From positions 1 to 53,276 of the IMG/VR virus record IMGVR_UViG_3300034152_000987: a stretch of DNA of 53,276 nucleotides; one strand, written 5' to 3'. The translations under genes were made by a program, and so were the position numbers. The notes beneath the pieces were generated by a model. The model was given only the letters and a program-made list of their open reading frames with translations, did not search any database and was not told the origin of the DNA. This stretch comes from a virus. Lineage: Duplodnaviria; Caudoviricetes. Shown here one piece after another: positions 32,963 to 53,177 of this stretch; position 1 is the first letter of the stretch; every line of letters begins with the position of its first letter.

Positions 32963-33053
32963 GATTTTGGCTCCTCCACGCTCTTTGTTAAACCCACACC
33001 CAATAAAACGAGTGATTTAACGATGATCATTGGAATTTCTTTCACTCTTTCAT

Positions 33054-33982: not shown

Positions 33983-35654
33983 AACTTACTTGGATATGGA
34001 TAATCTCTGTGATTAAACGTGTCTGGCCAACTCATTTTATTTTTCCTTTCCTTTAAAGTTTTTTAAAAATTAATTCTTTATTCTTTTGCCATTGAGGCTT
34101 CCACGACCAGTTAAATTTTTTGTACAGCAATCTGCTGTGTTTTGTTTCTTGAGTTATTTCAAAGTAATCTCCTGCAGGATCTTCATACTGATAAAACGGT
34201 TTTTGTGGGTCCATGTGTGAATCAACCATTCTTTGAAACATCAATTCCGCCGGAGGCATTTTGTTTGAAACAAGTTCACTTCTTTTAATTTTAAGTATAA
34301 TCATTGTCTACGATTTTTAAATTTTTTTGGGTGGTTTTTCCAATCCTTTAAAGTTTTTTAAAAATCAATTCTTTTTGGCTTCCTTGAAGGTTTGAGAATT
34401 TTTTTACGCTTTTCGTCGCCCGCGACCATGATGAAGAAGTTTGTCACAAAACAAACCGTTTAAAATAGCCTACCGTCAATTTAGAACAAACCGCCCATCC
34501 ATTCCACCGCGCTTGAAACAAACGGAGAGGAATCGATCGCGTCCAACGCCATTGCGAAAGTCACCAAGGACCAAATCACTGTCACCGTTGACAAGGCAAT
34601 GAAAGAGAAAACTTTTTGCAACGGGTTGTTCTCTTTGCGTTTTTTCAACAAATCCATTCCAAGCAACGCTATCAACAAGTAACCGATTGGCAATGAAATC
34701 AATGAACAGATGAATTTAAAAGTCATCTCACTCAACCTTCCTCTTGTTTTTTTTCTCAATCAAATCAAAAAACTTCAAAACGTCCTTTCCCAAATGATTT
34801 TTTGGGGCGGGGATGAAAAATTCCGTCTTTGTCGTTTTTGTCGAACCATTTCTTTTCAATGGCTTTCGTCACCTTTTTTTCCAACTCTTTGAGTTCTTTG
34901 TTTCTGACTTCTTCAATCAACCTGCCGAACAATTTTTTCCAAGTCCGGTTGTCCAAGTTGAACGAAACCGTCAAAGTGAAATTGCTTTTTTCCCAGGTCA
35001 CCAACAACAAAGACTTGTCGGAAACGTCTTCCAAATATCTGTCGAACAGTTCTTCCAGTATGAGTGAATTTATCGCGTCGATTATTTTGTCTCTGCTTTT
35101 TTCGTCGTCGAATCTGTCTGAGCGAAACTTGCTCTCAAAATCACGCAAATACACGCACACGAAATCAATTTCTTCAACGTTGGTTTTGTCTTTTAAAACA
35201 ACCAATCTGCTTAAAACGTTTGTCATCTCAATCACTCTCTCCGTTTTTCGCCTCGTTGATCGTTTTCACCCAATCAACGTTGGACAGTTCTTTTGTTATC
35301 TCACTGTTTATTCTTTTCAATTCTCTTCTTCTCGCTTCCGCTATTAATTTTCCCAAATGTTTGTCGTAAAACGATTTTTCAAAACTTACAATCAACAGGG
35401 CGGCGTATTTAAACCCTGAGCCGTTGAATGAGTTCAACACTATGCAGCCGACGTGAGGTTTCGGATCTTCCAAAATAATTCTTTTTATCGCTTTTGTTGA
35501 CAGTCGAAACGATTTCAACAACAAAGCGCGGGTTTCACGCTCGTGCATTTGTCTCTCCCCAAATTTTTCTCTGTAAACGTTTGGGTTAACTAAGTATTTA
35601 TCTAATATAGGTATCAGTATTTTCTTTTCTTCCATGTTTGACAACCCGTTCAAT

Positions 35655-36182
35655 TTAGAAAAATTGTTTGATTTCTTTCTCTGCCGAGCTTTCGCTGTCT
35701 GACGCGTGAACCGCGTTTTTTGGAAGTTCGGTTCCAAAATCGCCTCTTATCGTGCCTGGTTTTGCCTTTGTGGGATCCGCGTCCCCAATCAACTGTCTCA
35801 CTGCGTTTATGACGTTGTCTCCTTCCAAAACCATCGCCACTATGGGTCCTGATGTCATGAATTCAACGTTCCTGTCAAAAAAATCTTTTCCGGCGTGTTC
35901 ATGATAAAAGTTCGTCGCTGCCGTTTTGGGCATTTCAAACATTCTCATCCCAACAATTTCCAAACCGTTGTTTTCAAATCTGGCCGTCACTCTTCCTATT
36001 GCGTTGTTTTTCACGCAATCCGGTTTTAACAACACCAACGTTCTTTCTGGTTCGCGGTTCAAGCTTGGTTTGACGTACGTCGGTCTCCAATTGGAAATTA
36101 GGTAATATAAAATCGTCAACAAGAAACCAAGAATTCCTATCTTAGCTGCGTTCCACAAATTATCAACAATGAATTCCAACAT
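35655..36182 (-). CDS. ndk: Nucleoside diphosphate kinase with N-terminal hydrophobic extension
   Basis: ERTLVLLKPD, FYHEH.GKDFF, PGTIRGDFG, NAVHASDS (catalytic His). Confidence 0.93.
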   Translation of the reverse strand: MLEFIVDNLWNAAKIGILGFLLTILYYLISNWRPTYVKPSLNREPERTLVLLKPDCVKNNAIGRVTARFENNGLEIVGMRMFEMPKTAATNFYHEHAGKDFFDRNVEFMTSGPIVAMVLEGDNVINAVRQLIGDADPTKAKPGTIRGDFGTELPKNAVHASDSESSAEKEIKQFF

Positions 36183-37238
36183 TTTTACCTCTCTTCCTCA
36201 ATTAACGTTCCTCTTCGGGATCATAGCCGTTTTTGAACGCGATCAATGACGCTTAAGACGATCAAACAAAGGAAGGTCGACGTTCCAGCCATTGCAAATT
36301 CCATCCACTTGGGCCACGGCGTTTCCATTTTGTTCACCTCCTATACAAAATATTGTTTCAATTAAGAAAAAATTACTGTAATTAAAGTTACTGTGGACAA
36401 CGTCAACGCAGCCATTTCCATGATTCCATCCCCCTTCAGGATCATTTTAAAAAGCGGCGCCTTGAGTTGCGCAATTTTACGTCAAACCCTGGAGGAACAA
36501 TCCCTGAACAGGTGGCTATCCACTCTTCAGCCGCCTCCATCCACCCTTTGCTCGGTTTCCATTTTGGCAATTCAGAAGTTTTGAATTCAACCTTTTCTTC
36601 AAACAAAATCTTTTTGTCAATCATTTTTTTCGTCCTTTCCTTTTGAACGCGCCCGTCACCTGCCTGAACATGGCGATTAGAGTCAAAGCGACGGCTGACG
36701 ACAGAATGATTATCATGGATTCCCTTTCCGTTATGATCTTCAATTCGTAAGTTCCAAAAACGGACAGAAACGCCACAATCATTAGAACGATGAAGTTCAT
36801 CTTTAAATTCTCCTTTCATTGACGTTGCGGAAAAAATCGACTCTTTGCGATTCAAGTTCTGCGCCGCTGGCCGATTTTTGAACCTTCCTGATTCAAAGCG
36901 TCAGTTCCAATTGAAACGTTGAACGTTTGAAATCCGTGTTTTTCCAAACGTTTGTCTAAATATTCATCAAATTTTTTCAACTTGTTCAGCGCCCATTTTT
37001 CAAGCGGCGTGATTTTTTTTTCTCATTGAAGTCATCCTTTCATCCGTTGGTGTAAAATTGAATCAAGCTCCAACGCAATTGATTTTCCCACCTTGAACTC
37101 CCAGTCATTTTAAGAGTCGCTGACTTTTCGTTAGCCAATTTTCTTTCTTTGTAAAAAATTGAAAAAAACCAATGGGTGAAACATTCTTTCTTGTTCACTC
37201 TTCTTGGCATGGTTTAAATTGTCTTGAACACCTCCTTT

Positions 37239-37742
37239 TCACCACTCGAATTGAAGCGTCGCTCCGTGTTCGTTGCAACCAGGATCCGATTCCAACAAGT
37301 TCGAAGAATGGCTGAATCTGTATCCTATTTTCCAACCGTTTCTCAAAAAACCGAACCCGTATTTGACGACGGCTATCATTCCTCTTCGAACGTAATCTTT
37401 TCCAGGCGAATCGAACCAATAAGATCCTCCCACTCCAATTTCCAAGTACGCGTTTTTAGGCAAAGTTTTTTCCCAGAACAAAGTCGCTCCGGTTGATTCG
37501 GAATTTCCTTCGTCAAACTTGCGGACGGCCACGTCCCCTTCCAAAACAAATTTGGATTTTTCCCATTCAATCAGATTAATTCCGGCCATGAGCGAAAAGC
37601 TTTTCAAGTCAACGTCGTCTTTTTGACCCCAACCCATTTCCATTCCAGGGTCTTCCATGTAAGAAATCCCCATTGCGTCAATCAAGATTAAAAAACACAA
37701 CGCGTAAGACAAAACGGTTTTGATCATTTGAAACAAGCGCAC
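37239..37742 (-). CDS. PagL-like outer-membrane beta-barrel (lipid A 3-O-deacylase family)
   Basis: Signal-peptide-like N-terminus, amphipathic beta strands, YLEIGVGG, IGYRFSHSSN (HxSN) and DPGCN, C-terminal aromatic (LQFEW). Confidence 0.65.
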   Translation of the reverse strand: MRLFQMIKTVLSYALCFLILIDAMGISYMEDPGMEMGWGQKDDVDLKSFSLMAGINLIEWEKSKFVLEGDVAVRKFDEGNSESTGATLFWEKTLPKNAYLEIGVGGSYWFDSPGKDYVRRGMIAVVKYGFGFLRNGWKIGYRFSHSSNLLESDPGCNEHGATLQFEW

Positions 37743-38053
37743 TCCTTGTTTTTTAGAATTTCAATTTGTTCTTCAATGGAGTTCACGAATTCAGTTTGTT
37801 TGTCGGATCCAGTGGCTTGTTTTTCATCCAACGGGCTGAAATGCTTGTAATTTCTTTTTTCCATTTCTTTTGTCAAAGCCTCGTGCCTGTTTTGCAACGC
37901 TTTCAATTTTCCAACCCATCTCAACGTTTCAGGATGTTTGGAATACCCTTTCTTTCCGTTGGCAATCACTGACCAAATCGCGTGCAACTCTCTGTGCTCT
38001 CCCAACAAATGCTTCCTGCACAGCTCACTTGGTTTCACGTCCCAAATCCTCAT
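37724..38053 (-). CDS. Pyrimidine dimer DNA glycosylase / endonuclease V-like protein
   Basis: MRIWD...LCRKHLLGEHRELH...HPE..RW...RHE.L..EM..R.YKH.SPL. Confidence 0.75.
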   Translation of the reverse strand: MRIWDVKPSELCRKHLLGEHRELHAIWSVIANGKKGYSKHPETLRWVGKLKALQNRHEALTKEMEKRNYKHFSPLDEKQATGSDKQTEFVNSIEEQIEILKNKECACFK

Positions 38054-38920
38054 CTTTCAACCCTTTCAAATTTTCAAAGTTTTCAACCAAAGCGCAAAAA
38101 CCACACAATTCTCTAACTTCTTCATTTCCTTTCACAAAATCCCTGGCCAAAACAAAACCGTTGCAATTGGTCAACCTTCGGCCGCATTTGAAACATTTTC
38201 GGTTTGGTTCATTCACGGATCGTCTTCCTTAGCGAAAAACCGCTTTCCTTTTTCTTTTGAACCAACCGCAGTCGTTCTTTTCGTTCAATTCTCTGGGGCT
38301 TCATTTGTGCCCCGTCACTTCTCTCAACCACGACCATTCGCTGTTTGAGTTGACGACAACGTTGTTTGGGTTGGAACATTCCCAGTCCACTGGATAACAC
38401 GCTTTGATTTTCAACCATTTGCAATTTGAGCAATAAACCTTTTTTTCTCCAAACATTTCAATCTCCTCTCAGATAAAAAAATAAAATCGTGACAGTCAAC
38501 GTTCATTGAAATACAAAAATTTCTCTATTCTTTTAATGAGGTAGTCAACGTTCGGGTAAATCACCCTTCTCAAATAAATCACTTCCTCTTCAACTTCTTC
38601 AACGTCTTTTTCAAAATCCATTTCACCTTCTTTCTGAGACGTTTCGGTTATTTGAATTTCATATTCGTTTGACGAACGAAAATTGGCTGGATTTAAGATT
38701 GGATTCAGGTCTTCATTGACGTGACATTCTATTTCATAAGCGAGGCTTGCCAAAGCCACGTCACAAACCTTTTTTTCGTACGTTCTCACTCTGTTGAAAG
38801 AATCATCCAACAAATCAATTGTCACAGTGAATTCCGGTTCCATGAATTTAAAATCCTCTCATTTGAATTTTTCATTTGCCAAGTCTCTGTAAATAACAGG
38901 TTACTTTATTGCTCTCGCTC

Positions 38921-39340
38921 TCATTCTCTTTTTTTCCACCTTGCGGCGGGATCCCCGATCGGTTTTTCCAAACGCGCCATTTTGATTTCCCCCGTTTTTC
39001 TGTTTCTAACCACCGCGTCGACGGTTTGCAACTTTTCGCCTCTCCACGATTTCGCCACTTCCAACAATTCCAAATGCGCCAAGTCAATTTGTTCGAACGC
39101 TTCCTCAGCTTCCAACTCTCCCATTTCTTCGTAAATGGTTTCTTTCAACAAGACCAACCCTTGGTAATCGGTCAGAGCTTCAATCATCGATTCGTGACGA
39201 TTGATTTTTTTGTTGAAACAAGCGAACGCGAACAGAGTCAACGCGACTCCGACAATCAACAAAACGACGTTCACGGTTTTCAAGTTCAGTTCGGTTTCAT
39301 TTCTCATCTCCCACTCTCCTTTCCAAACGCTTCGATTCAA
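38921..39340 (-). CDS. Hypothetical membrane-anchored protein
   Basis: One hydrophobic helix followed by an acidic region. Confidence 0.5.
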   Translation of the reverse strand: MNRSVWKGEWEMRNETELNLKTVNVVLLIVGVALTLFAFACFNKKINRHESMIEALTDYQGLVLLKETIYEEMGELEAEEAFEQIDLAHLELLEVAKSWRGEKLQTVDAVVRNRKTGEIKMARLEKPIGDPAARWKKRE

Positions 39341-39632
39341 TCATGGTCGTCGACTTTTCAACGGAGCTCAAAATAAATTTTAAGGAGTCATTTCCAAGCT
39401 GATTCTAAATTTAATTCTGAAAACGTAAATAAAATTGATTGTGATTTCATTCTTTGCGAAAATCAAGGACAACAAGTTGCCTTTGTCAGTTTTCGCCATT
39501 ACGCCAAACAACCCCAATCCAATCCCTTTGCTCCCGTCAAGCGCAACCCACAACGGAATGAACGTAAACATTTTTTTTTTCTTTCCCCCTTCTCTGAGCT
39601 CTGCGCTCTGCGTTACATTGACTCTATTCTAC

Positions 39633-39660
39633 ATTATAATCATTATATTTTATTTGTCAA
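39633..39660 (-). promoter_or_regulatory. Sigma70-type promoter TTGACA-N16-TATAAT driving the leftward arm
   Basis: Perfect hexamers at the point where coding switches strand. Confidence 0.75.
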
Positions 39661-40219
39661 GTAAAATATCATGGTCATAGTGAAAAAACGCTCACAAAAG
39701 TGTGAGTTGGGGTCCCTGTCCATACAGTGGGGATAGATTTACATTTACAAATTATTATAGCCCCCTATTTACAAACTATTCCCTTTTTTTGGACTAACTA
39801 TTGAGGGGAGGTGTCTTAAATGACTAATTGCTTCTTCTGTCTTCACCTTACTCACAGAAGAGAAGCAGGCTTTGTCATCGGCTCCTGTCCATTCATCGAC
39901 GGCTCTGTTCTCTGTGTAGAGGACGACCGTGAGCATGTGAATGGAGTGGACAATGAGGACCTCGGCAACACCGACGTCGAGTTTCCTGAGCATTGCCCTC
40001 TTTACACCGATGAAGAGTTCATTGCTTACATTGGTGAGTAAAGAGAAGGCCCCTTAGGGGGCCCTTCTCTCAATCAGCCCTGGAAACAGGGCTGTTTGAG
40101 AGGGGTTTGGTCAAACCCTCGGGCTAGTCAACGGCCCATAACAAAAGAGTTGACCGCGAACCCATGGCTCTGGGCCATTGGGGTTAGTGCGTTTATTCCC
40201 ATGAGAGGAGGTGATACAC

Positions 40220-40528
40220 ATGGGAATCTATGCGGACATCAGGGGAACACAGGTCAAAGCATCTGGCCTGGTTGCCAAGGTGGTCTGCAAGGCGACAGGC
40301 ACAGAGTGTGCTGATGAAGCCCCTCTAGATAGAGACGGCGCTATCAGAGCACTCAACATCCTGGATGCCATGTTCAGCGATGGACTATCGCTGTCCAGGG
40401 TGGACATGGATGGTGTGCGAATTGCCGCGGCGGACTGTTGGGACATAGCAGCTGTCGCAGAATTCGCGGCTCGCCTTGTGGATTGGTTGGTTAACGACCA
40501 AACCGGAGAGCCAATACGGTTCGGTTAG
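40220..40528 (+). CDS. Hypothetical early protein
   Basis: ATG after AGGAGGTG SD; about 102 aa; followed by a hairpin. Confidence 0.6.
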   Translation: MGIYADIRGTQVKASGLVAKVVCKATGTECADEAPLDRDGAIRALNILDAMFSDGLSLSRVDMDGVRIAAADCWDIAAVAEFAARLVDWLVNDQTGEPIRFG

Positions 40529-40646
40529 TTGGAAACCAACTAAACCGCCGAAACCCCATACACTAACCAGGCTTAGGCCCGTGGGGTACATAACTACCGA
40601 AGGGGTGTTATAAGGTAGTATTTTCATAATGAAAGGAGGGGATGAC

Positions 40647-40775
40647 ATGGACGACGACCGCTTCTTGAAAATTCTTGACGTGGTTGAGATAGCTCTGTAC
40701 GTCATCGCGTTGTTTGGCGGCGGGGCCTTTGGCGTGTGGTACTTTCTCACCATGGCCTGTCTTCTAACAACCTAA
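40647..40775 (+). CDS. 42-aa membrane peptide, not in the ORF track
   Basis: AAGGAGG SD; MDDDRFLKILDVVEIALYVIALFGGGAFGVWYFLTMACLLTT; stops just before repeat copy 2. Confidence 0.6.
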   Translation: MDDDRFLKILDVVEIALYVIALFGGGAFGVWYFLTMACLLTT

Positions 40776-40850
40776 ATGGGGTGGGCCCCTTAGGGGGCCC
40801 TTCTCTCAATCAGCCCTGGAAACAGGGCTGTTTGAGAGGAGGTGATAACC

Positions 40851-41027
40851 ATGAAACCTATTTATTGTGGTCCCCCCAAAAAACCTCTCTCCAAGTTGGA
40901 GCAGGAGTGGGTTTGGATTTGTGAGGACTACGAAGAAATCCGAAACAGGCCCGGAAGAGGTTTTGTCGAGGAAAGGCGAAAGTTGCTTGCCAGAAAGTGT
41001 CGCCTGGAAAGGCTACTCGGATGGTAG
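40851..41027 (+). CDS. Small hypothetical protein between repeat copies 2 and 3
   Basis: ATG directly after the element's SD; 58 aa. Confidence 0.6.
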   Translation: MKPIYCGPPKKPLSKLEQEWVWICEDYEEIRNRPGRGFVEERRKLLARKCRLERLLGW

Positions 41028-42243
41028 AGAACAGGCCCCTTAGGGGGCCCTTCTCTCAATCAGCCCTGGAAACAGGGCTGTTTGAGAGGAGGTGATAACC
41101 GTGAAGGAAATGACAATGAAAACAGAAGAAGCTGTGGTCAAAGTCAAGGAGATTGTGGAAACCCTCAAACGCTTGGTTAAAGGACTGGAATCCTGTCTTG
41201 AACTGATTCCAAACAACAGCCCCAATTGGGAAATCACTTTTAACAAGTATGAGAAAGCGCACGAATGTTTTTCAGCCGCCCGAAAGAAATTGGAGTGGCT
41301 TAAGATTTCTCCTTACGCCAAAGCTTGCGTCAATCTCAACCGGCTTCTTCCCTCACAATTGAAAGGAGGTGAAAGAAATGATGCAGATTTGCACCTCGGA
41401 AGAAGCGATTAAACTCATTCAAGAAGAAGTCATTGACTTCTTGTCTCTCATCGCCATACGAATGTTCGAAGCTGGACAGTGTTTCAGCGACGAATTCACT
41501 GAGGTGTTCGCTCAAAGGGAACGAGCTCGAAACAGGCAGAACGAGCTTTTGGTGGCGCAAACTCTTTCCGTTAAACCCATTTACGTCATGCTGGACGTCA
41601 ACAACATGATAACAATAACAAAATAGGAGGTGAAACGAGTGGAGGAAATGAAGAGAATCAAAGGCAAACTTGTCATCGTAAACAAAGAAACTCAAAGCGA
41701 TCTCAAAACTCTTAGACGCATGCGGAAAGAAGTGTTTCGCATGAAAAAAAGAATAGAACGATTGAAGGGAGGTGAATGAAATGACAAGGACCGTTTTTCA
41801 TGGTTTGCGCGAAACGTTGGACAAACAATACGATGACCCTGTGATTGCCACGTTGATTCACAAACTCGAAAGCGTTCTTCCAGAACCTTGTGAAAGCGAG
41901 TGGGCAATCTCCGTTCCAGAACCGTGCTCCATGCTTCACAACTTGATTGGCTCCATAGCGTTCGCCCTTGGATACAAATTCACGTTCTTATTCATGGATT
42001 GTGAAGGAAACCTGGCGCTGACCTCTTTGCCAACTGAACTAAATTGAAGGAGGTGGAAAAAATGTCGTCGAGGGTGGCCAAAATAGAAGTCAAGAGACTG
42101 GTCGTTTGCCCAAGTTGCAACAGAGAAATCATTATTTGTTCTGAAAACGACGGCGACGTGGAAGAGTACGTCTCTGACTTCACTTGCCCTTACTGCAAGA
42201 ATTTGATAAGAGCACCCAATTACAGTTAGAGGAGGTGAAAACA

Positions 42244-42549
42244 ATGAGCGTGAAAGACGAACTCAGGCGCTTTTACAACGTCATGAAAGAAACTGAAATT
42301 CCAGTGGTCAAGGAAAGGATTGTTGAAAAGCACTACTGGGGCAACAAGTTTCTTTTTGAAGACGGCGTAGGAGAATTCATCACTCCAAAGTCTTTGGAGA
42401 TTCAGGCAAAGGAAGACGGGGAAGAAGGAATGATGGCCGTATTGAACATTTTGTACGACTACATTGGAACTTATTCCCCGGAAGCCGCTGAAGAAGCTGA
42501 CGCAGTGGCAAACCGAGTTTTCAATTTTTGTCAGCGAAAGGACCGTTGA
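42244..42549 (+). CDS. Hypothetical early protein
   Basis: AGGAGGTG SD; 101 aa. Confidence 0.6.
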   Translation: MSVKDELRRFYNVMKETEIPVVKERIVEKHYWGNKFLFEDGVGEFITPKSLEIQAKEDGEEGMMAVLNILYDYIGTYSPEAAEEADAVANRVFNFCQRKDR

Positions 42550-42593
42550 AAGAGTTGGCAGCGACGAAACTTGCAACGTCGTCGTTGCCTCTC

Positions 42594-42720: not shown

Positions 42721-42754
42721 GGGAATTAAATAGAAAGTAAAAGAGGTAAAGAAA

Positions 42755-44350: not shown

Positions 44351-44364
44351 AAGGAGGATTAGCC

Positions 44365-44670: not shown

Positions 44671-44819
44671 ATTAAACTGAACTTGGAGAGCGACGGGCGT
44701 AGAACTTTAGGCCCGTCCCTCTCTCAAGCCCTCTTCATCGTTTTGGAAAAGAACGCGTTCTTTTTCAAACGATGAAGAGGGCTTGAGAGGGGACTCCAAT
44801 CCCCTCCTAGGAAAGGGGG

Positions 44820-45090
44820 TGGTTAAGTGCCTTCCTCTAACTCATTAGACCCTAAGTGGTTATTTGGGCTGGTTTTAATGGGTCTGCCAGCATTGCAACC
44901 GTGAGCGGACAGCCCAGCCGCAAGTTTGCCGAACTCGTCGCGAGGCGGGGGCGGAAAGCCAGGGGTCCGCTTGCACTGACTGGGACGGCGTGAGTTTGCG
45001 CCAGCGCGTGAATTTACGCCAGCGAGATACCCTGATGCCACCGCATTTAGTTCATGGCAAACAAACCGCAATGGACCGCTGGCAAAAAAC
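44820..45090 (+). ncRNA. Candidate ~270-nt multi-branched ncRNA
   Basis: GC-rich gap with no plus-strand ORF and nested long-range helices (see findings). Confidence 0.5.
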
Positions 45091-45375
45091 GACATCCACG
45101 TTTGAAAAGGAGGTGATGTAGAATGCGTTCAAGCAAAGTCAAGGCTCTTGTCGACAGGGCTGACAACGCTGGCTACGTGCCGGTTCTGTCCGGTAAAAAG
45201 CGCAGGAGCATGAAGACCATGCCTTGCCCCAAAGTTCACAGCCACACGGCCATCGTTTTTCGCCCCAAGAACAACCCAAAGGGCAAGAGAGTCGTCAGGT
45301 GCCCTTATTGCGCTTAACCTCGTGAGGGGGGCCTTGACCCCCCTTGCCCAACCTCATTTGAAAAGGAGGCAAACA

Positions 45376-46029
45376 ATGTCTTGGAAAAGCGAACACATGA
45401 ATTTAAAACCTCTTCCAAGAGGTGAGGCTAGGGGAGGTATTAAAATAAGTGATGTCCCTCCTCGTACTCCGGCTAATGATAAAAGAATGCGTAAGCGTCA
45501 TAGAAATCTGTATGGTTCTACAAAGTTTACGGACATACAGATTGTTTACTTCTTTTTAAAACATAAAGGTGTTTGTGAAAAAGCGTCAGCATATTTAGGG
45601 TATAAAAGCCACTGGGGTTTTATTTGTAGAGTAAGAAAAATAGTATACAATGGTTCACCATTAAAACCTCAAGGTAAAAAGAAGTCCTCATTTACCTCTC
45701 AAGAATTACAAGTTGCCATGGAACTTTCTAAAGGAGTAATTCCTGACGCAGCAAGGTTGCTTGGCGTTAACAAATCTACTGTAAGACAGCGTTGCTGTAA
45801 AGAAGGTATTAAGGTGCGTATCGGTCCTAGAAAAGGACGTTCAACTACAACCCTTACGTATAAGGAGAGCCTAAAGATAGGTAAACTCTTAATTAAAAGA
45901 GATGGAAACATAGGAACCGTCGCAAAAGAACTTAAACAAACTCCACAAACGATTGTATGGAAGGTAGCCAGGATGTACATCATTGACGTTCTTGGCATCG
46001 GTGAGTACAAAAAATCAAAACAATCCTGA
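45376..46029 (+). CDS. Multi-HTH (Fis-like) basic DNA-binding protein in a TA-rich island
   Basis: Three segments of type GVxxxAAxxLG (KGVCEKASAYLG, KGVIPDAARLLGVNKSTV, DGNIGTVAKELK). Confidence 0.55.
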   Translation: MSWKSEHMNLKPLPRGEARGGIKISDVPPRTPANDKRMRKRHRNLYGSTKFTDIQIVYFFLKHKGVCEKASAYLGYKSHWGFICRVRKIVYNGSPLKPQGKKKSSFTSQELQVAMELSKGVIPDAARLLGVNKSTVRQRCCKEGIKVRIGPRKGRSTTTLTYKESLKIGKLLIKRDGNIGTVAKELKQTPQTIVWKVARMYIIDVLGIGEYKKSKQS

Positions 46030-46624
46030 TTCAAAAGGAGGTGATTGCGTGAAAAACTCTTGTGGTTTTGAGGGTCCCAACGCAGGGTCCTTTGAAGAAG
46101 TCCCAGATTTTTTGGGAGAAATTGACGACGAGTTCAGCTCTTGGGATTACCCGCCTGGCACAATGTTCATGTTCTGGTGGGAAAGTTTGATGATGACGTC
46201 TGGTTTTTTCAATGGAGTGAAACACAACTTTGAAACCGCCGAAATGTCTCGCAGTTATTGGGGCAGGTGGCATGAAAAAAGGAGGTAGATTATGCGTTCG
46301 CCAAAACAAGTGAACATTTATGACTTGTCTGGAGGTCTCATTGCAGGCGGTTTGATGTCTCTTGACACAGTCAAACAAAAAGTAGAGGAAAGAAACGGCG
46401 ACGTCAACGCCGTGGAAACCTTGTGGGAGGAATCCAACGGAAGCGTTTACGTGGAGGATTACGCAAAAACGGTAAAAGTGAGCATTTCAAACATTTTCTA
46501 AAGGAGGTTTGAGTTCTGAAGACGGCCATCAGCTGGAGGTCTGGTGGCCGCTTCTTGAGGACTTCAATCCACGTTAAAAAGGAGGTAAATTCAAACAACG
46601 CTCAATCAGAAAGGAGGAACCGAA

Positions 46625-47188
46625 ATGCCAAACGTTCAATTGGATTTAAAACCTGAAAGCACTCTTTGTTTTTCGGGCCATCGACCGAACAACCTTGGAG
46701 GTTATTACGGACCAAAGGCCAGGGCCATTCAGAGCGGAATTCATTCCAAGCTTTATGAATTGGCAAAGAGAGCCCATGAAGGAGGTTTTCGAACTTTCAT
46801 TCAAGGCGGAGCTCAAGGAGTGGATTGGATTGCCGCAGAGGCGTGCATTCGGCTCAGAAGGGAAGGGCACAATTTGAGATTGATAACCGCGAAACCTTTT
46901 CCTTCTCAAGCGGCCAAGTGGCCAAACGTGGTCATGGACAGGTACAACAACATTCTTGAACAATCCGACGCAGTCATCAACGTTTCTGACGACCCGTTCA
47001 CGGCTGTGAAAATGTTCGACAGGAACATGTGGATGATTGACAGGAGCAGAGTTCTCATTGCCGTGTTTGGAGGAAAGTCTGGAGGAACCCTTCAAGCGAT
47101 TTCTTACGCCAGACGGAAAGGACTGCTCATCTGTTCAATAGACCCAATTCATCTTGAGGAGAATTGGGAAAGACCTGAAAGGAGGTAA
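46625..47188 (+). CDS. SLOG superfamily protein (YspA/DUF1273-like)
   Basis: CFSGHRP, FIQGGAQGVD, RNMWMID, GGT...I.YA motifs. Confidence 0.82.
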   Translation: MPNVQLDLKPESTLCFSGHRPNNLGGYYGPKARAIQSGIHSKLYELAKRAHEGGFRTFIQGGAQGVDWIAAEACIRLRREGHNLRLITAKPFPSQAAKWPNVVMDRYNNILEQSDAVINVSDDPFTAVKMFDRNMWMIDRSRVLIAVFGGKSGGTLQAISYARRKGLLICSIDPIHLEENWERPERR

Positions 47189-47192
47189 ATTA

Positions 47193-47993
47193 ATGAGGAT
47201 TTTCACGGCCCAATACCGTTATTCCGGTCCAGACAGATTGGACGTGACGGTCAAAGGGCAAGACCCAGTCGGCAAGGCGTTCGCCCCAACGTGGGAAATG
47301 GTCAAAGGGGTGAAAAATGGTTTCTTTTCGGAAGATGATTACTTGTCCCGCTACAAGCCGATTTTGGACCGAGGACTCGCTTCCTCAGGCGGGGCGTTTG
47401 AAAACAAGGAAAAAGTCGTGCTTGTTTGTTTTTGCGGTCCTGGCACGTTCTGTCATCGAATAACGATGGCGGAAGAAATGGAGCGCAGAGGAATCGGCGT
47501 TTACGAAGGGGAAATAAATCTCGGAAAGGCCCCTGATTGGCAACCTGGAGATTTGCTTGCCATTGAAAGGGGAGTGGTGGTTCACCAGGTGAACGCCAAA
47601 GGAGTCATGGGGGCTGGGATTGCTCTTCAATTCAGAAAGAAACACCCAGCCATGTATGAAGCGTATCGAAACTTGTGCTCAATTCAAACCAAAGACGGGT
47701 TGAAACTCGGCAAAATATTTTTGTGGAGGGCCTCAGACAAACTGATTGTCGCGAATTTTTGCGGCCAAGACGGGTTGGGAAGAAGCCGCAGACAAACTGA
47801 GTACTGGGCTCTCCGCCAATGTTTGAACAAATTGAAAAGTTGGCTTCAACTCAATTCAGAGCTGACTGGAAAGGAGGAACAAATCAACTTTCCTTGGAAA
47901 ATGGGATGCTCGTTGGGAGGAGGAAATTGGTACTTGGTTCATTCAATGATTAAAAACGTTTTTCCAAAAGCTAGAATCATAAGGAAAACGTGA
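47193..47993 (+). CDS. DUF488-like N-terminal domain fused to a macrodomain (Poa1p/DarG-like)
   Basis: N-terminal FAPTW...VLVCFC....CHR; C-terminal GDLL...VHQVNAKGVMGAGIALQF...PWKMGCSLGGGNW. Confidence 0.78.
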   Translation: MRIFTAQYRYSGPDRLDVTVKGQDPVGKAFAPTWEMVKGVKNGFFSEDDYLSRYKPILDRGLASSGGAFENKEKVVLVCFCGPGTFCHRITMAEEMERRGIGVYEGEINLGKAPDWQPGDLLAIERGVVVHQVNAKGVMGAGIALQFRKKHPAMYEAYRNLCSIQTKDGLKLGKIFLWRASDKLIVANFCGQDGLGRSRRQTEYWALRQCLNKLKSWLQLNSELTGKEEQINFPWKMGCSLGGGNWYLVHSMIKNVFPKARIIRKT

Positions 47994-48282
47994 AAGGAGG
48001 CTGGCATGTTCACTCACGTTTCGCGAGATGAAAGAGAAGAACGTCTTCACTTCTCTCATTTGTACAAATACGTGTCAGCGTATGAGTACACAAAAGAGGG
48101 ATTGAAAGAACTTGTTGAAGACGTTGAGTTTGCCGTAGAGAAAGCCAATGAACTCCGTGAACCGGTCATTGTGGATCAAGACGGTGAAATGTGCTTTCAC
48201 GTTCACCCTAATGGAAACATAACTCTCATGCTCCCGTGGAAACGTTACAAAATCATACGGGAATAGAAAGGAGGAATGATTC

Positions 48283-48756
48283 ATGTCAACCACGGCAATG
48301 GAATTGAAGTCAGAAGTTCACGTCCCGTTCATCACGGCCGGGAAGGCGTTGGTGGAATTCAGCAGTTTGAGGAAAGAATTCAAGGTGATTTATCAAATCA
48401 CTAAACACGAAGAAAAAGATTTGTGGTTCGTCTCAGTTCAATTCCGTTTTCCGGCGACTGAAGACGAACCGTTTGGCAAAATCAAGTTCGCTTACGTCGG
48501 GGCCATATTCGAAGACCTTGTTTTCAGACACACCAAGAGAAGCAAAGTGTCTCCAACGTCCAAAGCGTTCCTCGGTTTCAAATTCGTGTGGGACGCTCTG
48601 GTAGCCAAAAATCTTCCTGATTACGTGGCAATCAAACATTTGGGCAGATGCGGTCGTTGCGGCAGACGCCTTAGCGACCCCAAGTCCATGGAAAGAGGGT
48701 TCGGCCCTCATTGTTGGAAGTTTGTCAATGAAGAAGACCCTGAATTGGAGGCTTGA
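48283..48756 (+). CDS. DUF6011-domain protein
   Basis: C-terminal GRCGRCGRRLSDPKSMERGFGPHC. Confidence 0.7.
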   Translation: MSTTAMELKSEVHVPFITAGKALVEFSSLRKEFKVIYQITKHEEKDLWFVSVQFRFPATEDEPFGKIKFAYVGAIFEDLVFRHTKRSKVSPTSKAFLGFKFVWDALVAKNLPDYVAIKHLGRCGRCGRRLSDPKSMERGFGPHCWKFVNEEDPELEA

Positions 48757-48772
48757 AGAAAGGAGGAAAGAA

Positions 48773-49267
48773 ATGTTCGAGTTTGAGGAAAACGCAATCA
48801 AAGAGTTCAAAGGCGAGCATCGTTTTTTGTCCAACTTTTGGAAACAAGAACAAAGCGTCGCGTTCTTGATTGGGTCAGAGGAGGTGGAACTGACTTTTCC
48901 CACCAATGAACATTTTTATCAAGCAAGCAAGGCGAGCACGTTTGACGGTTTGATATACGTCAAAGAAGCCGAAACCCCTGGACAAGCCAAGCGCCGAGGA
49001 AGGTCGGTCAGTCACAGAAAGGACTGGGAAGAAGTGAAAGAAGCCATCATGCTGGCCGGTCTTAGAGTCAAATTCAGAAACCCCTCTCTCAGAAGACGAC
49101 TCGTCGCGACTTGGCCCAGACAACTTGTCGAAGGAAACTGGTGGAACGACAAGTTCTGGGGAGTGTGTCTCAAAACCAACGAGGGAGAGAACAAGTTGGG
49201 CGAATTGCTGATGAAGGTCAGAGAAGAGGTCATGGATGAGAACGTTGAAACTTTGTTCCATGATTGA
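48773..49267 (+). CDS. NADAR (YbiA-like) ADP-ribosyl hydrolase
   Basis: FLSNF, PTNEHFYQASK, AKRRGR, DWEEVK, LVEGN.W.D.FWG, GEN.LG.LLM.VR. Confidence 0.9.
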   Translation: MFEFEENAIKEFKGEHRFLSNFWKQEQSVAFLIGSEEVELTFPTNEHFYQASKASTFDGLIYVKEAETPGQAKRRGRSVSHRKDWEEVKEAIMLAGLRVKFRNPSLRRRLVATWPRQLVEGNWWNDKFWGVCLKTNEGENKLGELLMKVREEVMDENVETLFHD

Positions 49268-49929
49268 TTCGCCGCCGCGGTTTCAGCGTCCGTCCACCGA
49301 CGTCGCGGCGTCTCAGCGTCCGTCAAAAGTGAAGAAAAGCAAATTAAGGAAGTCGCCCGCTCGCGACTCCGCCCAAAGGGCGGGCCGCTCGCAGGGCTCC
49401 GCCAATTCATGTTCCCGCCACCCGCCCCCTCCTAGAAAGCGCGAAGCTCGCGGGCGGGGCGGGCTGGCGGCCCGCCTAGCGTCCGTTCCCTCTCTTTTGA
49501 ACTCAGTCGCGCGCTCTGAAAGAAGCGGAAAGAAAGCGAATGAAGCCAAAGCGCGCCCCTTGGGCAGGGTTTTCCGTCAGCGTCCGATTTCCCAATTGAA
49601 TGAGGTTGAACGAAAAACAAACGAAAAGCGGAAGAAAGGAGGCGAGAGAAAGTGACTTTCAAAACAGAGGAAACGCTCGAAGCGTGGAGTGAAGAAGTGA
49701 GGAAAATCAGAACCAACGACCGAAAGAAAGTCGGGGCGTTGACCGTCGCCATGACGAAAAGAGAGCGCTTGGCGACGATTGCCGAACGCGCGTGCGGAGC
49801 CGAGAGGGAGTTGGAAAGACTGTCGGCGACAATCGTGAGAAGAAGAATGAAGGTGAAGGTGAAGAGCGTCCAGCCCTCGCCCGCGAGGAGCGCGCAAACG
49901 ACTGACCAAACTGAGAAAGGAGAAGCGTC

Positions 49930-51297
49930 ATGAAGAAAAGGGAAGAGAAAGCGGCAATGGCGACCGTCATCGGAGAAACGCAAGTGTTCGGCGGTCATCT
50001 CGTCCACCCGAAAGCGTTGAACGCGTTGAGAGCGTTGATTGAAGCCGAAGGAGAGGCGTTCCGCGCCAGAGCCGTCGCGTTCGTTGAGGAAGAGTCGAGC
50101 GACGGCAGAATCGGCTGCTGGATGAGCGACTTGAAGATGATTGTGATTTATTTGGGCTCTCTGTTGGAAGAGTCCAAAAAGAGGTGTTTGGAAAACCCAA
50201 ACGGCATGGCGGTGATGGCGGAATGCTGGGTGAATCTCATCTACGTCATGGCCCACGAAATCGGGCACGCCTTGGCCGACGTGCACGGAGAAGGGGCGAC
50301 GAAAGAGGAAATCGAAGCGTCTTGCGAAGAGTACGGGGCGGAAAAGTTCGAAGCTTTGGTGGAGTCAAACGAAGTGGACGTGGAGCCTCCGCCCAATCGC
50401 GAAGTTCCTTTTCTGCCCACCCGATTCGTCACCTGGCTGGCGAAGGCCGCTGAAGAGGAAAAGCTGAGACCTTGGGTCGCGAAACAAATGGAAATGTTCG
50501 ACGCCGACGCGATGTTCGACCCTGAAGCCGGAAGCGTCGACACCATGAAAAGCTTCATCGACGCGTGCCCGGGCCTAGAGCAAAGAAGGAAAGAGCAATC
50601 GAGCGTTGAAGTCAAAATGAGCGCTCCTGAAGACGAGCCGGCCCCGGAGCCTCGAGAAAGCGTCGAAACGATTGCCGGAACGGACCCGTTCGCCGACGGG
50701 GCGGGAGAATTCGCCCCGACGCTTCCGAGGCAAAGCGACGATGAAGAGGAAGAGGAAGAGCCGTTCTTCGAGAGCGATGAAGTGGAAAAGCGAAGCGCGG
50801 CTGGCGTGGCTCCGAATCCGGCGGAAGAGCCGGCTTGGAAGAAAATCTACTTGGCGCTGGACACGAGCGTTTGGGAAAAGTGCCGTCCGGAAAATCCCGC
50901 CGCCGGGGCGGAAAGCCTGAGAGCCGACCCTCCGCGCGTCGACCCGGCGCTCTTGGCTGAAGTCGGGTTCGACAAATGCAGGTGGATTCAACTGGAAAAC
51001 CCGAACGAAAAGGCGAAATGGGCTTGGAGGGAACGCCCAATTGAAGACGGCGTGATTCAGTGCGTGATTTTCAAAACCTCCAAACTGCCCAGCTTCCACT
51101 TGTTCAGCTCAAAAGCGAACCAGTGGGTGAAAGTCATTCCTCAAAACCCGGCGACGGGGTCGGATTCGGCGAAGGAAGCCAAACGCGGAAACAGAATATC
51201 GTTCGTGATAGCCGACCCTGCGCCCGGCTCCGGCGTCAAAGACAGTCAATTCGTCGGCAAAATCGTCAACGGCGAGTATGAAAGAATAGTGAAATGA
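49930..51297 (+). CDS. Acidic protein with HExxH metallopeptidase-like motif
   Basis: 455 aa; VMAHEIGHA followed by EEIEA; acidic Pro-rich linker. Confidence 0.6.
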   Translation: MKKREEKAAMATVIGETQVFGGHLVHPKALNALRALIEAEGEAFRARAVAFVEEESSDGRIGCWMSDLKMIVIYLGSLLEESKKRCLENPNGMAVMAECWVNLIYVMAHEIGHALADVHGEGATKEEIEASCEEYGAEKFEALVESNEVDVEPPPNREVPFLPTRFVTWLAKAAEEEKLRPWVAKQMEMFDADAMFDPEAGSVDTMKSFIDACPGLEQRRKEQSSVEVKMSAPEDEPAPEPRESVETIAGTDPFADGAGEFAPTLPRQSDDEEEEEEPFFESDEVEKRSAAGVAPNPAEEPAWKKIYLALDTSVWEKCRPENPAAGAESLRADPPRVDPALLAEVGFDKCRWIQLENPNEKAKWAWRERPIEDGVIQCVIFKTSKLPSFHLFSSKANQWVKVIPQNPATGSDSAKEAKRGNRISFVIADPAPGSGVKDSQFVGKIVNGEYERIVK

Positions 51298-51791
51298 GAG
51301 CGTTGAGAGGAGTGGTGAAAGCGGGAGGATTGGTCGTGACCAAAGAAGGCCCGTCATTCTGGGTCGCGCCGGAACAAGGGTTCGAAATCGGAGACAAGGT
51401 TTGGGCGTGCTACGACTTCACCAAAAACAGAGTTCGAAAGGTCATGAAAAGAGGAGGCTCGCTGAAAGAAGGGGCGAAGGAACCGAAAGAACTAAAAGAA
51501 GAAGCCCCTCAAATTCTTCTGGAAGAGCTGAACGAGTGGCCGTCGAGCGTAATTGAATGGGAAGTTGAAGAGCGTCCAACCCTTGACGGCGAAGAATGAA
51601 AATGAAAATGAAGGGGAAGAGCGTCCGCGACCCCTTGCGGCGAAAGATTGAGGAGCGGAGTTGGCCGCTCCGACGCATAGCGGCGCCATACCGGAGCTTG
51701 AACCGCTCGAGAGAGAGTGGGAAGTAAAGCCAGAGCCGCGCGACAAAGGCCCAACGATTGAAAACCGACGGACTGGAAAGGAGAAATCAAA

Positions 51792-52628
51792 ATGGCTGGA
51801 GGAAACAGAGGTTTGGCAAGCTTGACGGTGATGAACGCAAGAGTCGGAAACGGCATGTCCTTCGTTCCCGCCCATCTCAAGAACGGGTTGGGCGTCAACG
51901 ATTGCGTGAAATTCTCCGGGTTGGTCAACTTGGACGGAGGCGACGGCGAACCGCTGGCCCTGGACTTCACGGCTTGGGGGCGGCTGGCTCGAATGATCGC
52001 TTTCGGGCTGCCCAAGGGAACCACGTTCTTCGCCCGCTGCAGGCCCAACAGCTATCGGGGAAGGGTGTACGAAGTGTCAGGACACGACGAGAAGGGAGAC
52101 CCGATCTATCAGCCCATGATGAAGGCTGACGGGACGGGGCCGAGAACCACGCAAAAGGTCGGGTTCACGATCATCTCCAATCAGTTCCTGTTCGGCGACC
52201 CGTCTCAGAGGCAGATAGACGTGGAAATCGCCCACAATCTTCGCGACCCCAATTGGAACTCCACCCCTGAAGGCAAGGCGGCTTGGAAGCTTCAAATCCA
52301 AGAAAGGCAAAAGTGGCCTCAGCTGCCCGTCGACCTGGCCGCGAAGACGTACGGGTACGCTCGTCTTCAACTTCCGACCGGGGCGGAAATGACGTTCACG
52401 CAAGGTCTGCCGGAACAGCACCGGAGAACGACCGGGGCGCCGACGCCGAGATTGGACGCGTCGCCCACAAGCGCAAACGGGGGAGACAGCGCGGTTGGCA
52501 ACATGGCCGCACAAGTGGCGGCCGCTGCCGCCGGAACGAATCCGACGCCGGCTCCGAACACGGGAGCGGGAGTCCACCATCGTCTGCCGGCCCAAATGAC
52601 GGCTGGAGGCTTTGAAGGTCTGTATTAG
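51792..52628 (+). CDS. Divergent single-stranded DNA-binding protein (OB-fold-like)
   Basis: FTAWGRLA...LPKG motif as in SSBs and a disordered Ala/Pro/Gly C-terminal tail ending GGFEGLY. Confidence 0.5.
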   Translation: MAGGNRGLASLTVMNARVGNGMSFVPAHLKNGLGVNDCVKFSGLVNLDGGDGEPLALDFTAWGRLARMIAFGLPKGTTFFARCRPNSYRGRVYEVSGHDEKGDPIYQPMMKADGTGPRTTQKVGFTIISNQFLFGDPSQRQIDVEIAHNLRDPNWNSTPEGKAAWKLQIQERQKWPQLPVDLAAKTYGYARLQLPTGAEMTFTQGLPEQHRRTTGAPTPRLDASPTSANGGDSAVGNMAAQVAAAAAGTNPTPAPNTGAGVHHRLPAQMTAGGFEGLY

Positions 52629-52639
52629 AAACCCAAAGT

Positions 52640-52687
52640 CAAGCGGGGAGTCTGGCAAGCTTCCCGCTTGGCTCAAAATTTTTTTTT
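52640..52687 (+). terminator. Rho-independent terminator candidate
   Basis: CAAGCGGGGAG...CTTCCCGCTTG hairpin followed shortly by a T-run, between convergent genes. Confidence 0.6.
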
Positions 52688-52878
52688 AAAAAACAAAAAA
52701 TTTTTGATTTGGCGTCAAATTTTTCCGCAAACGGCGAGAAAATTGGAAAGGACGAAGAATTGAAAATGACAATGAAGGTTTGGAATTGAATCGTTTAAAA
52801 AAATTCACTTCGTTTTTTGAGTTCGAGCTTGAATTTTCCTTCGACGAGCTGAAATCGACTTGGACCGCGCAATTGAAT

Positions 52879-53166
52879 TCACTGACGAAACCGCTCTTTT
52901 TTTCCAGGCATCTCTCTGCCACTGCGACCGTCAACTCTGTCATAACAGTTCTTGTAATGACTGTCAAGAACTTCAGCGACTTTGTCCGGTCCTCCGAACA
53001 TGTTGCACGTCGCGTCAATCAAGACGTCCAGCGTTTCGGACCTGCCGATCGTTCTGCCGTTCAAGCCGGACAGCTTCTCTGACATCTTGTTCAAAGCGTT
53101 CAAACGTTCTTCTTCCATCGTGACGGACGTTCTCGTCTTCATGACTGACTCCTTTTCAAGACGCAA
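52879..53166 (-). CDS. Ribbon-helix-helix-like small regulator
   Basis: MKTRTSVTMEEERLNALNKM...IGRSETLDVLID beta-alpha-alpha pattern. Confidence 0.45.
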   Translation of the reverse strand: MRLEKESVMKTRTSVTMEEERLNALNKMSEKLSGLNGRTIGRSETLDVLIDATCNMFGGPDKVAEVLDSHYKNCYDRVDGRSGREMPGKKERFRQ

Positions 53167-53177
53167 AGCGCCATGGC

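Follow-up and report, generated by a model that had tools for sequence, protein, structure and literature searches.

Why does one lineage of tailed phages carry almost no TpA dinucleotides over large parts of its genome, while its relatives carry them at ordinary frequency? The question is raised by virus record IMGVR_UViG_3300034152_000987, a single 53,276-bp contig from an uncultivated tailed phage, studied here over its full length (the window, positions 1 to 53,276). The cause of TpA under-representation in general has been called mysterious (PMC11282364). This record carries the shortage to an extreme and offers controls of its own: mobile islands and regulatory DNA of normal TA content lie within it, and relatives of normal TA content carry orthologues of its genes. 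The anatomy of the depletion and the failure of the predictions of a pure mutator are demonstrated below. The explanation favored here, tentatively and with less than even confidence, is lineage-specific selection against TpA or UpA in non-regulatory, long-resident DNA, exerted by an agent linked to the host.

Extent and anatomy of the TpA shortage

The shortage was measured by the symmetrised TpA odds ratio (rho*TA), with 1-kb windows used for the comparison with controls. Over the entire record rho*TA is 0.51. By region it is 0.71 at 1-12500, 0.48 at 12501-34299, 0.32 at 34300-40000, 0.60 at 40001-46000, 0.27 at 46001-49000, and 0.21 at 49001-53276. It falls to 0.09 (4 TA) at 49001-50000 and to 0.12 (5 TA) at 50001-51000. 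The first-pass annotation had counted TA by hand in five segments, and all five counts were reproduced exactly. Set against the numbers expected from local A and T, they are 3 in 420 nucleotides at 38941-39360 (29.5 expected), 1 in 420 at 50401-50820 (16.0), 2 in 180 at 52681-52860 (20.5), 9 in 60 at 1501-1560 (6.8), and 9 in 60 at 10801-10860 (8.7). The same annotation had placed the depletion at 34300-53170. It is present there (rho*TA 0.38), but those borders did not hold, as all of the record except about 9.9 kb of islands is depleted. Once these TA-normal patches are removed, the remaining 43.4 kb, termed resident DNA here, has a rho*TA of 0.41, with values of 0.75 for AT, 1.43 for AA/TT, 1.07 for CA/TG, and 1.02 for CG.

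The magnitude lies beyond the ordinary mild shortage of TpA, as had been suspected, and the record stands far outside the controls and all 32 loci of its relatives. Values are 0.85-1.10 in the 18 IMG/VR relatives found through the portal gene, 0.80-1.05 in 14 metagenome relatives, 0.52-1.00 (median 0.72) in 30 loci of Patescibacteria genomes, and 0.66-0.82 in three named or huge phages. Across 1109 control windows from 61 distinct loci, the minimum is 0.22, the 1st percentile 0.39, and the median 0.87, with 35 windows below 0.5. The 105 windows of the record have a minimum of 0.06 and a median of 0.47; of these, 56% lie under 0.5 and 33% under the 1st percentile of the controls.

For comparison, a survey of 4969 phage genomes puts the TpA ratio of phages outside Demerecviridae at 0.77 (PMC11409064), and in more than 15,000 bacteria TpA is reported to depend on GC content and phylogeny, with little remaining scatter (PMC11282364). 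The depletion resembles the universal TpA shortage of bacteria and phages, as these two sources describe it, in the dinucleotide, in the direction, in affecting coding and non-coding DNA, and in being stronger at higher GC. It differs in size, with 0.41 in resident DNA and 0.21-0.32 in the arms, compared with about 0.77 in typical phages and 0.80-1.10 in the relatives. It also differs in being sharply lineage-specific and in coming with a 2-5 fold excess of A- and T-tracts. The shortage is an extreme, lineage-specific form of the familiar one and is more than chance.

Codon order was permuted inside each gene, which keeps amino acids and codon usage and randomises codon junctions. Junctions between a third-position T and a first-position A (T3|A1) occur at 0.57, 0.44, 0.21, 0.61, 0.13, and 0.05 times the permuted number in the six regions above, with z of -7 to -21 in the depleted regions. 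The value of 0.21 is that of the leftward arm (23 observed, 107.1 permuted; per-gene ratios 0-0.57). The last two belong to the rightward arm, where 0.05 stands for 2 observed junctions and 40.4 permuted ones. At four-fold sites of the three most depleted arms, T3 is used at 16 of 469 sites before A and at 22-41% before other bases. TTA, CTA, and GTA are scarce within codons. Because the shortage survives codon-order permutation, codon usage fails as its explanation. Reassignment of a stop codon is ruled out, as TGA (43), TAA (37), and TAG (10) are all used as stops. The loss is found at codon positions 2-3, at codon junctions, and in non-coding DNA that is probably transcribed.

Non-coding DNA is indeed affected, as the first-pass annotation had stated. 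The segment 52629-52779 has 1 TA where 14.0 are expected, and the gaps 46191-46291 and 46502-46624 have a rho of 0.25. The gene and terminator layout suggests that the depleted spacers are probably transcribed. Among them is the AT-rich spacer between convergent genes at 52629..52879, which consists of A- and T-tracts and is almost free of TA. A hairpin within it, at 52637-52673, resembles a bidirectional terminator. The gene on the minus strand was placed by eye, with its end near 52880.

Depletion extends to every one of the ten NTAN contexts and is mildest for TTAA in three of the four spans examined, in keeping with an earlier remark that surviving TA often sits in TTAA. No 4- or 6-bp palindrome is depleted beyond the dinucleotide level by maximal-order Markov z-scores: CTAG is at -2.7, TTAA at -3.6, GTAC at +2.6, TATA at +2.3, and ATAT, the most negative, at -5.7, and the most extreme 6-mer is GACGTC at -3.2. 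Phages are known to lose short sequences under host restriction pressure. The pattern here is unlike such avoidance, and avoidance of one particular restriction site is ruled out, as no palindrome is an outlier beyond lower-order composition.

The A and T that remain are held in tracts. Homopolymer runs of A or T of at least 5 nucleotides are 2.7-3.3 times as frequent as in shuffles in resident DNA, compared with 1.1-1.45 times in relatives and islands; no clear 10-11 bp periodicity of AA/TT was found. In resident genes the third codon base depends strongly, and in a strand-asymmetric manner, on the next base, being C ahead of purines and T ahead of pyrimidines, with A3 shunned ahead of T and C; after a pyrimidine at position 2, G is favored over A. 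For aspartate, GAT and GAC are used 31 and 194 times ahead of A, and 143 and 37 times ahead of T. The T/(T+C) fraction varies with the next base from 0.20 to 0.78 in the record and from 0.64 to 0.77 in the relative L001, where this context rule is absent. On the coding strand, TG (1.16) is more frequent than CA (1.05).

Open reading frames (ORFs) of at least 80 amino acids number 144 on both strands, many of them in antisense overlap. The long open frames on the non-coding strand arise because TAA and TAG triplets are rare. Gene callers will be misled by such genomes, since few TAA and TAG triplets leave long open frames on both strands, and so will host predictors based on composition.

The division into a resident genome and islands, proposed in the first-pass annotation, is correct, as per-gene junction ratios are bimodal. 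Ratios of about 1.0 are found at 9650-10141, 10586-11521, 42755-43198, and 45322-46029. Intermediate ratios are found at 43922-44350, in a structural gene of 1180 amino acids, and in the intein-bearing terminase, and the remaining genes range from 0 to about 0.7. The islands, which are mostly selfish mobile genes, have values of 0.85 for TA, 0.79 for CG, and 1.14 for AA/TT. Their median delta* to the relatives is 0.116, compared with 0.215 for resident DNA.

One island, at 9176..11600 on the minus strand, holds two homing-endonuclease genes with repeated flanks (repeats D2-D4 and D10). According to PHROGs and Pfam, the gene at 9650-10141(-) is HNH-like (rho 0.92, junction ratio 1.00; 74% identity to an ORF of relative L017) and the gene at 10586-11521(-) is of the LAGLIDADG type (rho 1.05, junction ratio 1.02). 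Repeats of 56-125 nucleotides border the island at 9214-11589, with spacings of 294, 1045, and 1095 nucleotides and 94-96% identity, which suggests that the endonuclease cassette was duplicated or serially inserted. A LAGLIDADG intein of near-normal TA content occupies 19186..20363(-), or residues ~112-503 of the terminase, with matches to Pfam LAGLIDADG_3 and Intein_splicing. In 60-codon bins, the intein spans rho values of 0.61-0.97, the C-extein 0.30-0.68. The intein is missing from the relatives L001 and L002 and present at the same site in L012-type relatives, with 63% identity compared with 61-70% for the extein. Three accessory genes on the plus strand, at 42755-43198, 43922-44350, and 45322-46029, have junction ratios of 0.95, 0.76, and 1.02 among neighbors at 0-0.6. 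The product of the last is of the Fis type with a helix-turn-helix (HTH) domain, matching HTH_8.

Regulatory-looking gaps also keep their TA, with a rho of 0.85-0.96. The divergent region between the arms at 39572..39800 has, in 39572-39768, 19 TA where 19.7 are expected (rho 0.96). It includes a 12/12 match to the sigma-70 consensus, TTGACA-16-TATAAT, at 39633..39660(-), which heads the leftward arm and belongs to repeat family D11. By this match it is a predicted promoter, and a related copy lies at 33045-33088. The gap at 30544..30690(-), beside an initiator-like gene, is AT-rich (24% GC in 30600-30700), carries the palindrome GGTACAAAAATTGTACC twice, and has 18 TA where 19.2 are expected (rho 0.94); it may be an origin or operator. 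A third TA-normal, AT-rich gap of regulatory appearance lies at 13359-13459. The TAs kept in these promoter- and origin-like gaps may be functionally required.

Comparison with orthologues

The nearest relatives are 32 loci on uncultivated viral and metagenome contigs, some of them duplicates, with portal identities of 52-67%. A portal scan of metagenomes returned nothing nearer than 67%. Gene order is common to the record and its relatives over about 6.4-30 kb. In most relatives (L001-L018 and L024-L037) CpG is strongly depleted, with rho*CG of 0.28-0.79 at 32-43% GC, compared with 1.02 in resident DNA. The lineage departs from its kin in CpG as well as in TpA.

Alignment to L001 and L002 covered 19 genes and 3993 codon columns, and codon shifts were counted at identical residues. 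From relative to record, TTA goes from 67 to 22 and TTG from 61 to 143, GTA from 51 to 13 and GTG from 17 to 60, CTA from 23 to 8, TAT from 75 to 38, and TAC from 28 to 65; ATA is not reduced (55 to 68). The shift from A3 to G3 occurs after T, less so after C, and not at all after A or G. The junction ratio in the aligned genes is 0.40 in the record and 0.89 in the relative. At four-fold sites with T3|A1 in the relative, the record has A at 24, C at 22, T at 16, and G at 13.

Ancestral TA sites were defined as those with TA in at least 60% of relatives, and six other lineages were each run as focal lineage for comparison. The record has kept 24% of these sites at codon positions 2-3, 15% at junctions, and 74% in tyrosine codons, compared with 29-81%, 34-81%, and 81-92% in the other lineages. 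The replacements at positions 2-3 are TG 113, TT 70, and TC 16 (of 214), and at junctions CA 139, AA 58, GA 33, and CG 32 (of 331). In tyrosine codons they are TT (Phe) 21, CA 4, and TG 2. Transition products are enriched relative to the other lineages: TG makes up 53% at positions 2-3 (23-36% in the other lineages) and CA 42% at junctions (23-34%). Synonymous sites are saturated against the nearest relatives (no more than 67% portal identity), and these counts show equilibria and not mutation paths. In 18 orthologous genes the balance per 1000 dinucleotides is -31.9 for TA, -22.4 for ApT, and +14.8 for CA and TG together, with CG, TT, GG, AC, and GA each up by 7-10.

Tyrosine had been described as under-used and as replaced by histidine, cysteine, or phenylalanine. 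The under-use is seen in the arms (5 Tyr in 455 amino acids for the ORF at 49930-51297) and not in the aligned core genes, which have 136 compared with 139 in the relative. By region the share of tyrosine is 5.2, 3.2, 2.1, 2.3, 2.7, and 1.0%; the arm values (1.0-2.7%) are unpolarised, as the arm genes have no relatives. Replacement by histidine or cysteine was not borne out: lost ancestral tyrosines became Phe in 21 cases, His or Gln in 4, and Cys or Trp in 2. The change to Phe affects 21 of 130 sites, compared with 3-9 in each of the six other lineages. An alignment of the NADAR protein with YbiA has one Tyr-to-Phe change, one Tyr-to-Glu change, and one Tyr-Phe pair in swapped order.

Selection, mutation, and the host

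The favored explanation would run as follows. TpA and, more weakly, ApT would be avoided in long-resident DNA, with A and T content held in A- and T-tracts. TpA would be purged from coding DNA in all three codon phases and from transcribed spacers. It would be retained where easily melted or specifically read DNA is needed, in -10 boxes, the divergent promoter region, and the origin-like iteron region. Recently arrived selfish DNA (the homing-endonuclease genes, the intein, and a few accessory genes) would still carry the signature of TA-normal relatives. Both the level, RNA or DNA, and the agent are inferred. The first-ranked candidate agent would be UpA-sensitive decay or cleavage of phage transcripts; the second, a DNA-binding protein of the host that, like Rok, H-NS, and MvaT, would recognise flexible TpA steps and disfavor A-tracts. 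The first-pass proposal of selection against a TA- or UA-acting factor fits better than its mutator, though no agent was found.

Transversions among the replacements of ancestral TA speak for selection (TT in 70 of 214 at positions 2-3, AA in 58 of 331 at junctions), and the gene-by-gene strength of the depletion suits a pressure that acts locally. On the coding strand TG behaves differently from CA, and AC from GT, so that some of the pressure probably works at the level of RNA or translation rather than on the duplex. Four features fit selection on transcripts (UpA) and on a local DNA property alike: strength that varies from gene to gene, depletion in spacers that are probably transcribed, lack of dependence on GC, and sparing of promoter and origin-like DNA.

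Suppression of UpA is known from eukaryotic RNA and small DNA viruses, where it is attributed to RNases acting at UpA (PMC11282364, PMC3829696, PMC5659819). The likeness lies in avoidance within transcribed sequence at any codon phase, gene by gene and independent of GC. The difference is that the present case is a double-stranded DNA phage of a prokaryote, in which the RNA level is inferred. We know of no UpA-specific prokaryotic nuclease that shapes phage genomes.

For the DNA-binding alternative, Bacillus genomes with Rok are reported to be rich in A-tracts and poor in AACTA and TACTA, the latter being a top Rok motif (PMC6212790). The resident DNA resembles an evader of a silencer of the Rok or H-NS type in being rich in A-tracts and poor in TpA steps. 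TACTA is the most depleted of the 1024 pentamers there, with 7 copies where 113.7 are expected (15.0 under a first-order Markov model), and AACTA has an observed/expected ratio of 0.28, although it too includes the generally rare CTA. The resemblance ends where every TA context, and not just the Rok motifs, is depleted.

Several points weigh against selection as proposed here. A silencer predicts the deepest purge in AT-rich DNA and TA-poor promoters; the deepest purge lies in the arm of 55-58% GC, and the promoters are TA-rich. The rank of TACTA is weak evidence, as this pentamer holds two TAs and the rare CTA. An RNA-level agent by itself leaves the loss of ApT and the excess of A- and T-tracts unexplained, and CpA is not avoided at junctions. 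Avoidance of -10 mimics gains no specific support, as TAnnnT is no rarer than TA itself predicts. A mutational share in the TpA loss is possible, because transitions are enriched relative to other lineages and GC is 3-4 points higher than in the nearest relatives.

The order of depletion, TA and then AT, follows weak base stacking. By nearest-neighbor energies, resident DNA exceeds shuffles in stability by 0.021 kcal per step (z -30), which largely restates the loss of TA and is not an independent finding. Halophily is ruled out, as the proteome is not acidic. Thermophily is hinted at by purine-loaded coding strands and by the use of ATA and AGR, but an IVYWREL index of 37.6% and a charged-minus-polar value of about 4.8 look mesophilic.

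The first-pass annotation had also offered a TA-to-CA/TG mutator, that is, a context-specific bias with raised A:T to G:C transitions at TpA. As the explanation of the shortage this is unlikely, although the enrichment of transitions on which it draws is real. Such a bias might come from adenine deamination on exposed single strands or from biased mismatch repair, and it might be coupled to transcription, with heavily transcribed arms decaying further. It accounts for TG and CA being the commonest replacements, for coding-strand TG exceeding CA, and for NTA moving to NTG relative to the orthologues (G share 0.74-0.87 compared with 0.25-0.50, with no shift after A or G). The same holds for T3|A1 moving mainly to C3|A1 (T/(T+C) of 0.25 before A and 0.84-0.88 before C or T) and for the higher GC. 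That ATA, in which A-to-G is non-synonymous, is not reduced also suits it, but is explained as well by the favoring of third-position purines ahead of a purine, given that Ile lacks a G-ending codon. The mass balance does not follow, as CA and TG recover only 14.8 of the 31.9 TA lost per 1000, and rho*CA/TG, which is 0.96-1.05 in relatives, rises only to 1.07 in resident DNA and drops to 0.82 at 49001-53276. Decay to CA and TG predicts neither the loss of ApT nor the gain of A- and T-tracts, nor the A and G found at former four-fold T3|A1 sites, and tyrosine was lost to Phe, a transversion. Near-neutral sites vary 2-9 fold across resident regions (junction ratio 0.44 in the core compared with 0.21, 0.13, and 0.05 in the arms), and regulatory DNA retains its TA. 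Of 104 ORFs compared with Pfam, 75 of which were also compared with PHROGs, none matched a deaminase, a methylase, or any other modification enzyme. Vertebrate genomes, through methylation and deamination of CpG, have one self-complementary dinucleotide in strong deficit. TpA here is likewise a single self-complementary dinucleotide in strong deficit, but the excess of transition products is missing or small, the neighboring ApT is lost as well, and the record has no detected methylase or deaminase. A modified base, with T or A replaced or decorated and TpA steps disfavored with it, is very improbable. The record does encode nucleotide genes (a deoxynucleoside monophosphate (dNMP) kinase, an HD-domain protein, NDK, and a weak nucleoside 2-deoxyribosyltransferase-like match). 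The HD protein and the dNMP kinase are common to the TA-normal L001 and L002, profile scans of the record found no thymidylate-synthase-like, PurZ-like, glycosyl-, methyl-, or amino-transferase gene, and TA-normal islands share the molecule with depleted DNA.

The main rival to selection, less probable than it but still worth serious weight, is passive mirroring: the phage would depend on host enzymes for its replication and would have come to equilibrium with a very TA-poor, A-tract-rich host genome. The most depleted ORFan arms would then have been longest in the host gene pool, and the islands would have been acquired from phages that infect other hosts. According to PMC11282364, phages tend to match their hosts in dinucleotide content, and the negative link between GC and TpA that it reports across bacteria is also present within the record. 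The relatives differ sharply in signature, as after a host shift (rho*TA 0.80-1.10 in 32 loci, low CpG, median delta* 0.215). One Patescibacteria genome, G029, has a rho*TA of 0.51-0.56 in three 20-kb pieces, with AA/TT at 1.30-1.35 and CG at 1.14, and its delta* to resident DNA is 0.072-0.082. Yet no sampled cell locus falls under 0.51-0.52, compared with 0.21-0.32 in the arms, and the spread of TpA around the GC trend is narrow in the survey of bacteria cited above. At the codon level G029 differs, with GTA in 301 of 1509 Val codons, Arg encoded by CGN, and a junction ratio of 0.65 compared with 0.32. Its resemblance is not demonstrably specific, as the cell sample covers one phylum, reached via a chance ClpP match. 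The ClpP search for a host returned only 47-50% matches on genome contigs and at most 53% identity in 201 Patescibacteria genomes, and five candidate genomes yielded no spacer-like DNA matches. Homing-endonuclease genes are shared with TA-normal relatives (74% identity to L017), a hint that these phages infect one host together; this counts weakly against any pressure to which all phages of that host would be exposed. An artefact, either a chimeric assembly of TA-poor and TA-normal genomes or an illusion of gene calling, is scarcely credible. Patchy composition, few stops, and long open frames on both strands would suit it. But the TA-normal patches are single mobile-type genes flanked by depleted genes, or an intein within one gene, gene order at 6.4-30 kb agrees with the relatives, and dinucleotide counts do not depend on gene calls.

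Returning to selection by a host-linked agent, a bolder and doubtful extension is that the shortage was left behind by an uncharacterised prokaryotic activity directed against TpA in DNA or UpA in RNA. It could be a defence RNase that cuts UA, a silencer or nuclease that reads TpA steps, or a DNA editor acting in TA context. If so, it would be the bacterial counterpart of the footprints of APOBEC, ZAP, and RNase L in eukaryotic viruses, and the TA-normal homing-endonuclease islands would be built-in controls within one molecule. With the host in hand, experiments could tell apart four candidate causes: cutting of RNA at UpA, proteins that read TpA steps, the stability of the duplex, and mutation.

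Gene layout and further features

The genes form two divergent sets: one extends leftward from about 39.6 kb down to base 8, the other rightward from about 39.8 kb to 52.6 kb. The GC and AT skews change sign at 40 kb. Large structural genes, together with the two homing-endonuclease genes, occupy the far left. The leftmost gene, only mildly depleted, at 8..3550(-), encodes the structural or tail-fibre-like protein of 1180 amino acids, with matches to SPRY and to a virion structural PHROG (rho 0.78, junction ratio 0.63).

The core module common to the relatives, identified by synteny at 12501..34299(-), is moderately depleted (rho*TA 0.48, junction ratio 0.44). It includes the portal (15176-16942, minus strand), the large terminase gene with its LAGLIDADG intein (17742-20696, minus strand), the HD-domain protein (21949-22509; 69% identity to L001 and L002), the dNMP kinase (23040-23660; 45% identity), a cold-shock protein, an M15 endolysin, an actin-like protein, ClpP, and the initiator-like HTH gene (30691-31203), directly downstream of which lies the gap of 24% GC. 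The weak nucleoside 2-deoxyribosyltransferase-like match is at 33338-33982, from a profile scan. The portal is 23-26% identical to portals of Bacillus phage G and other Bacillota phages. The actin-like protein of 340 amino acids (27827-28849, minus strand) matches the Pfam family 'Volactin' over its full length (E 3e-60). Four relatives have it at 63-64% identity, and two huge uncultured phages at about 30%. An HslV-like peptidase is encoded in addition to ClpP, the cold-shock protein, and NDK.

The leftward arm at 34300..39571(-) consists of small genes with strong TA depletion (rho*TA 0.32). They include, by Pfam, NDK (35655-36182) and a pyrimidine-dimer glycosylase (37724-38053), along with ORFans, all on the minus strand. 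Lying downstream of the consensus promoter match at 39660->39633, from which its early status is deduced, this arm is probably expressed early. No sequence match to the glycosylase was found in the PDB. The gene is borne by a genome in which TT/AA is 1.4-1.6 times expectation, and the load of thymine-dimer sites may, speculatively, be a reason for carrying it.

The distal part of the rightward arm, at 46001..53150(+), is the most deeply depleted (rho*TA 0.27 and then 0.21). According to Pfam and PHROGs it carries YpsA/SLOG (46625-47188), a DUF488/phosphatase protein of 279 amino acids (47154-47993), DUF6011 (48283-48756), and NADAR (48722-49267), all on the plus strand. Side by side at 46625-49267, they form a nucleotide- and ADP-ribose-processing cluster, which, in view of the literature on NADAR and DarT, may serve in counter-defence. 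The ORFan of 455 amino acids (49930-51297, plus strand) lies among ORFans of 55-58% GC. It matched only itself among 5.8 billion proteins, and an Atlas search yielded only leads below threshold. No IMG/VR relatives were found for this ORF, for the DUF488 protein, or for NDK. A sister genome is represented by a 1.2-kb contig, P0003, whose NDK is 75% identical.

No DNA match in the phage collection was found for 46000-53276 in distant mode or for 13000-33000 in near mode. No tRNA and no DNA polymerase were found in the record, nor a terminal repeat common to both of its ends, and the record may lack part of the genome. The right end at 53160-53276 is TA-rich, with near-identical direct repeats of about 30 nucleotides, and the gap at 53083-53276 has a rho of 0.93.

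Ribosome-binding sites of the record have the form GAGAGGAGGTGAT. The gene call at 39769-39993(-) is probably wrong; by eye, the plus-strand ORF at 39801-40042, with the strong ribosome-binding site GAGGGGAGGTG, fits better. A 72-nucleotide unit resembling a cassette boundary is present in three copies (40048-40119, 40784-40855, and 41034-41105), each ahead of a small gene. It is composed, in order, of the hairpin GGCCCCTTAGGGGGCC, the hairpin CAGCCCTGGAAACAGGGCTG, a strong ribosome-binding site, and the start codon.

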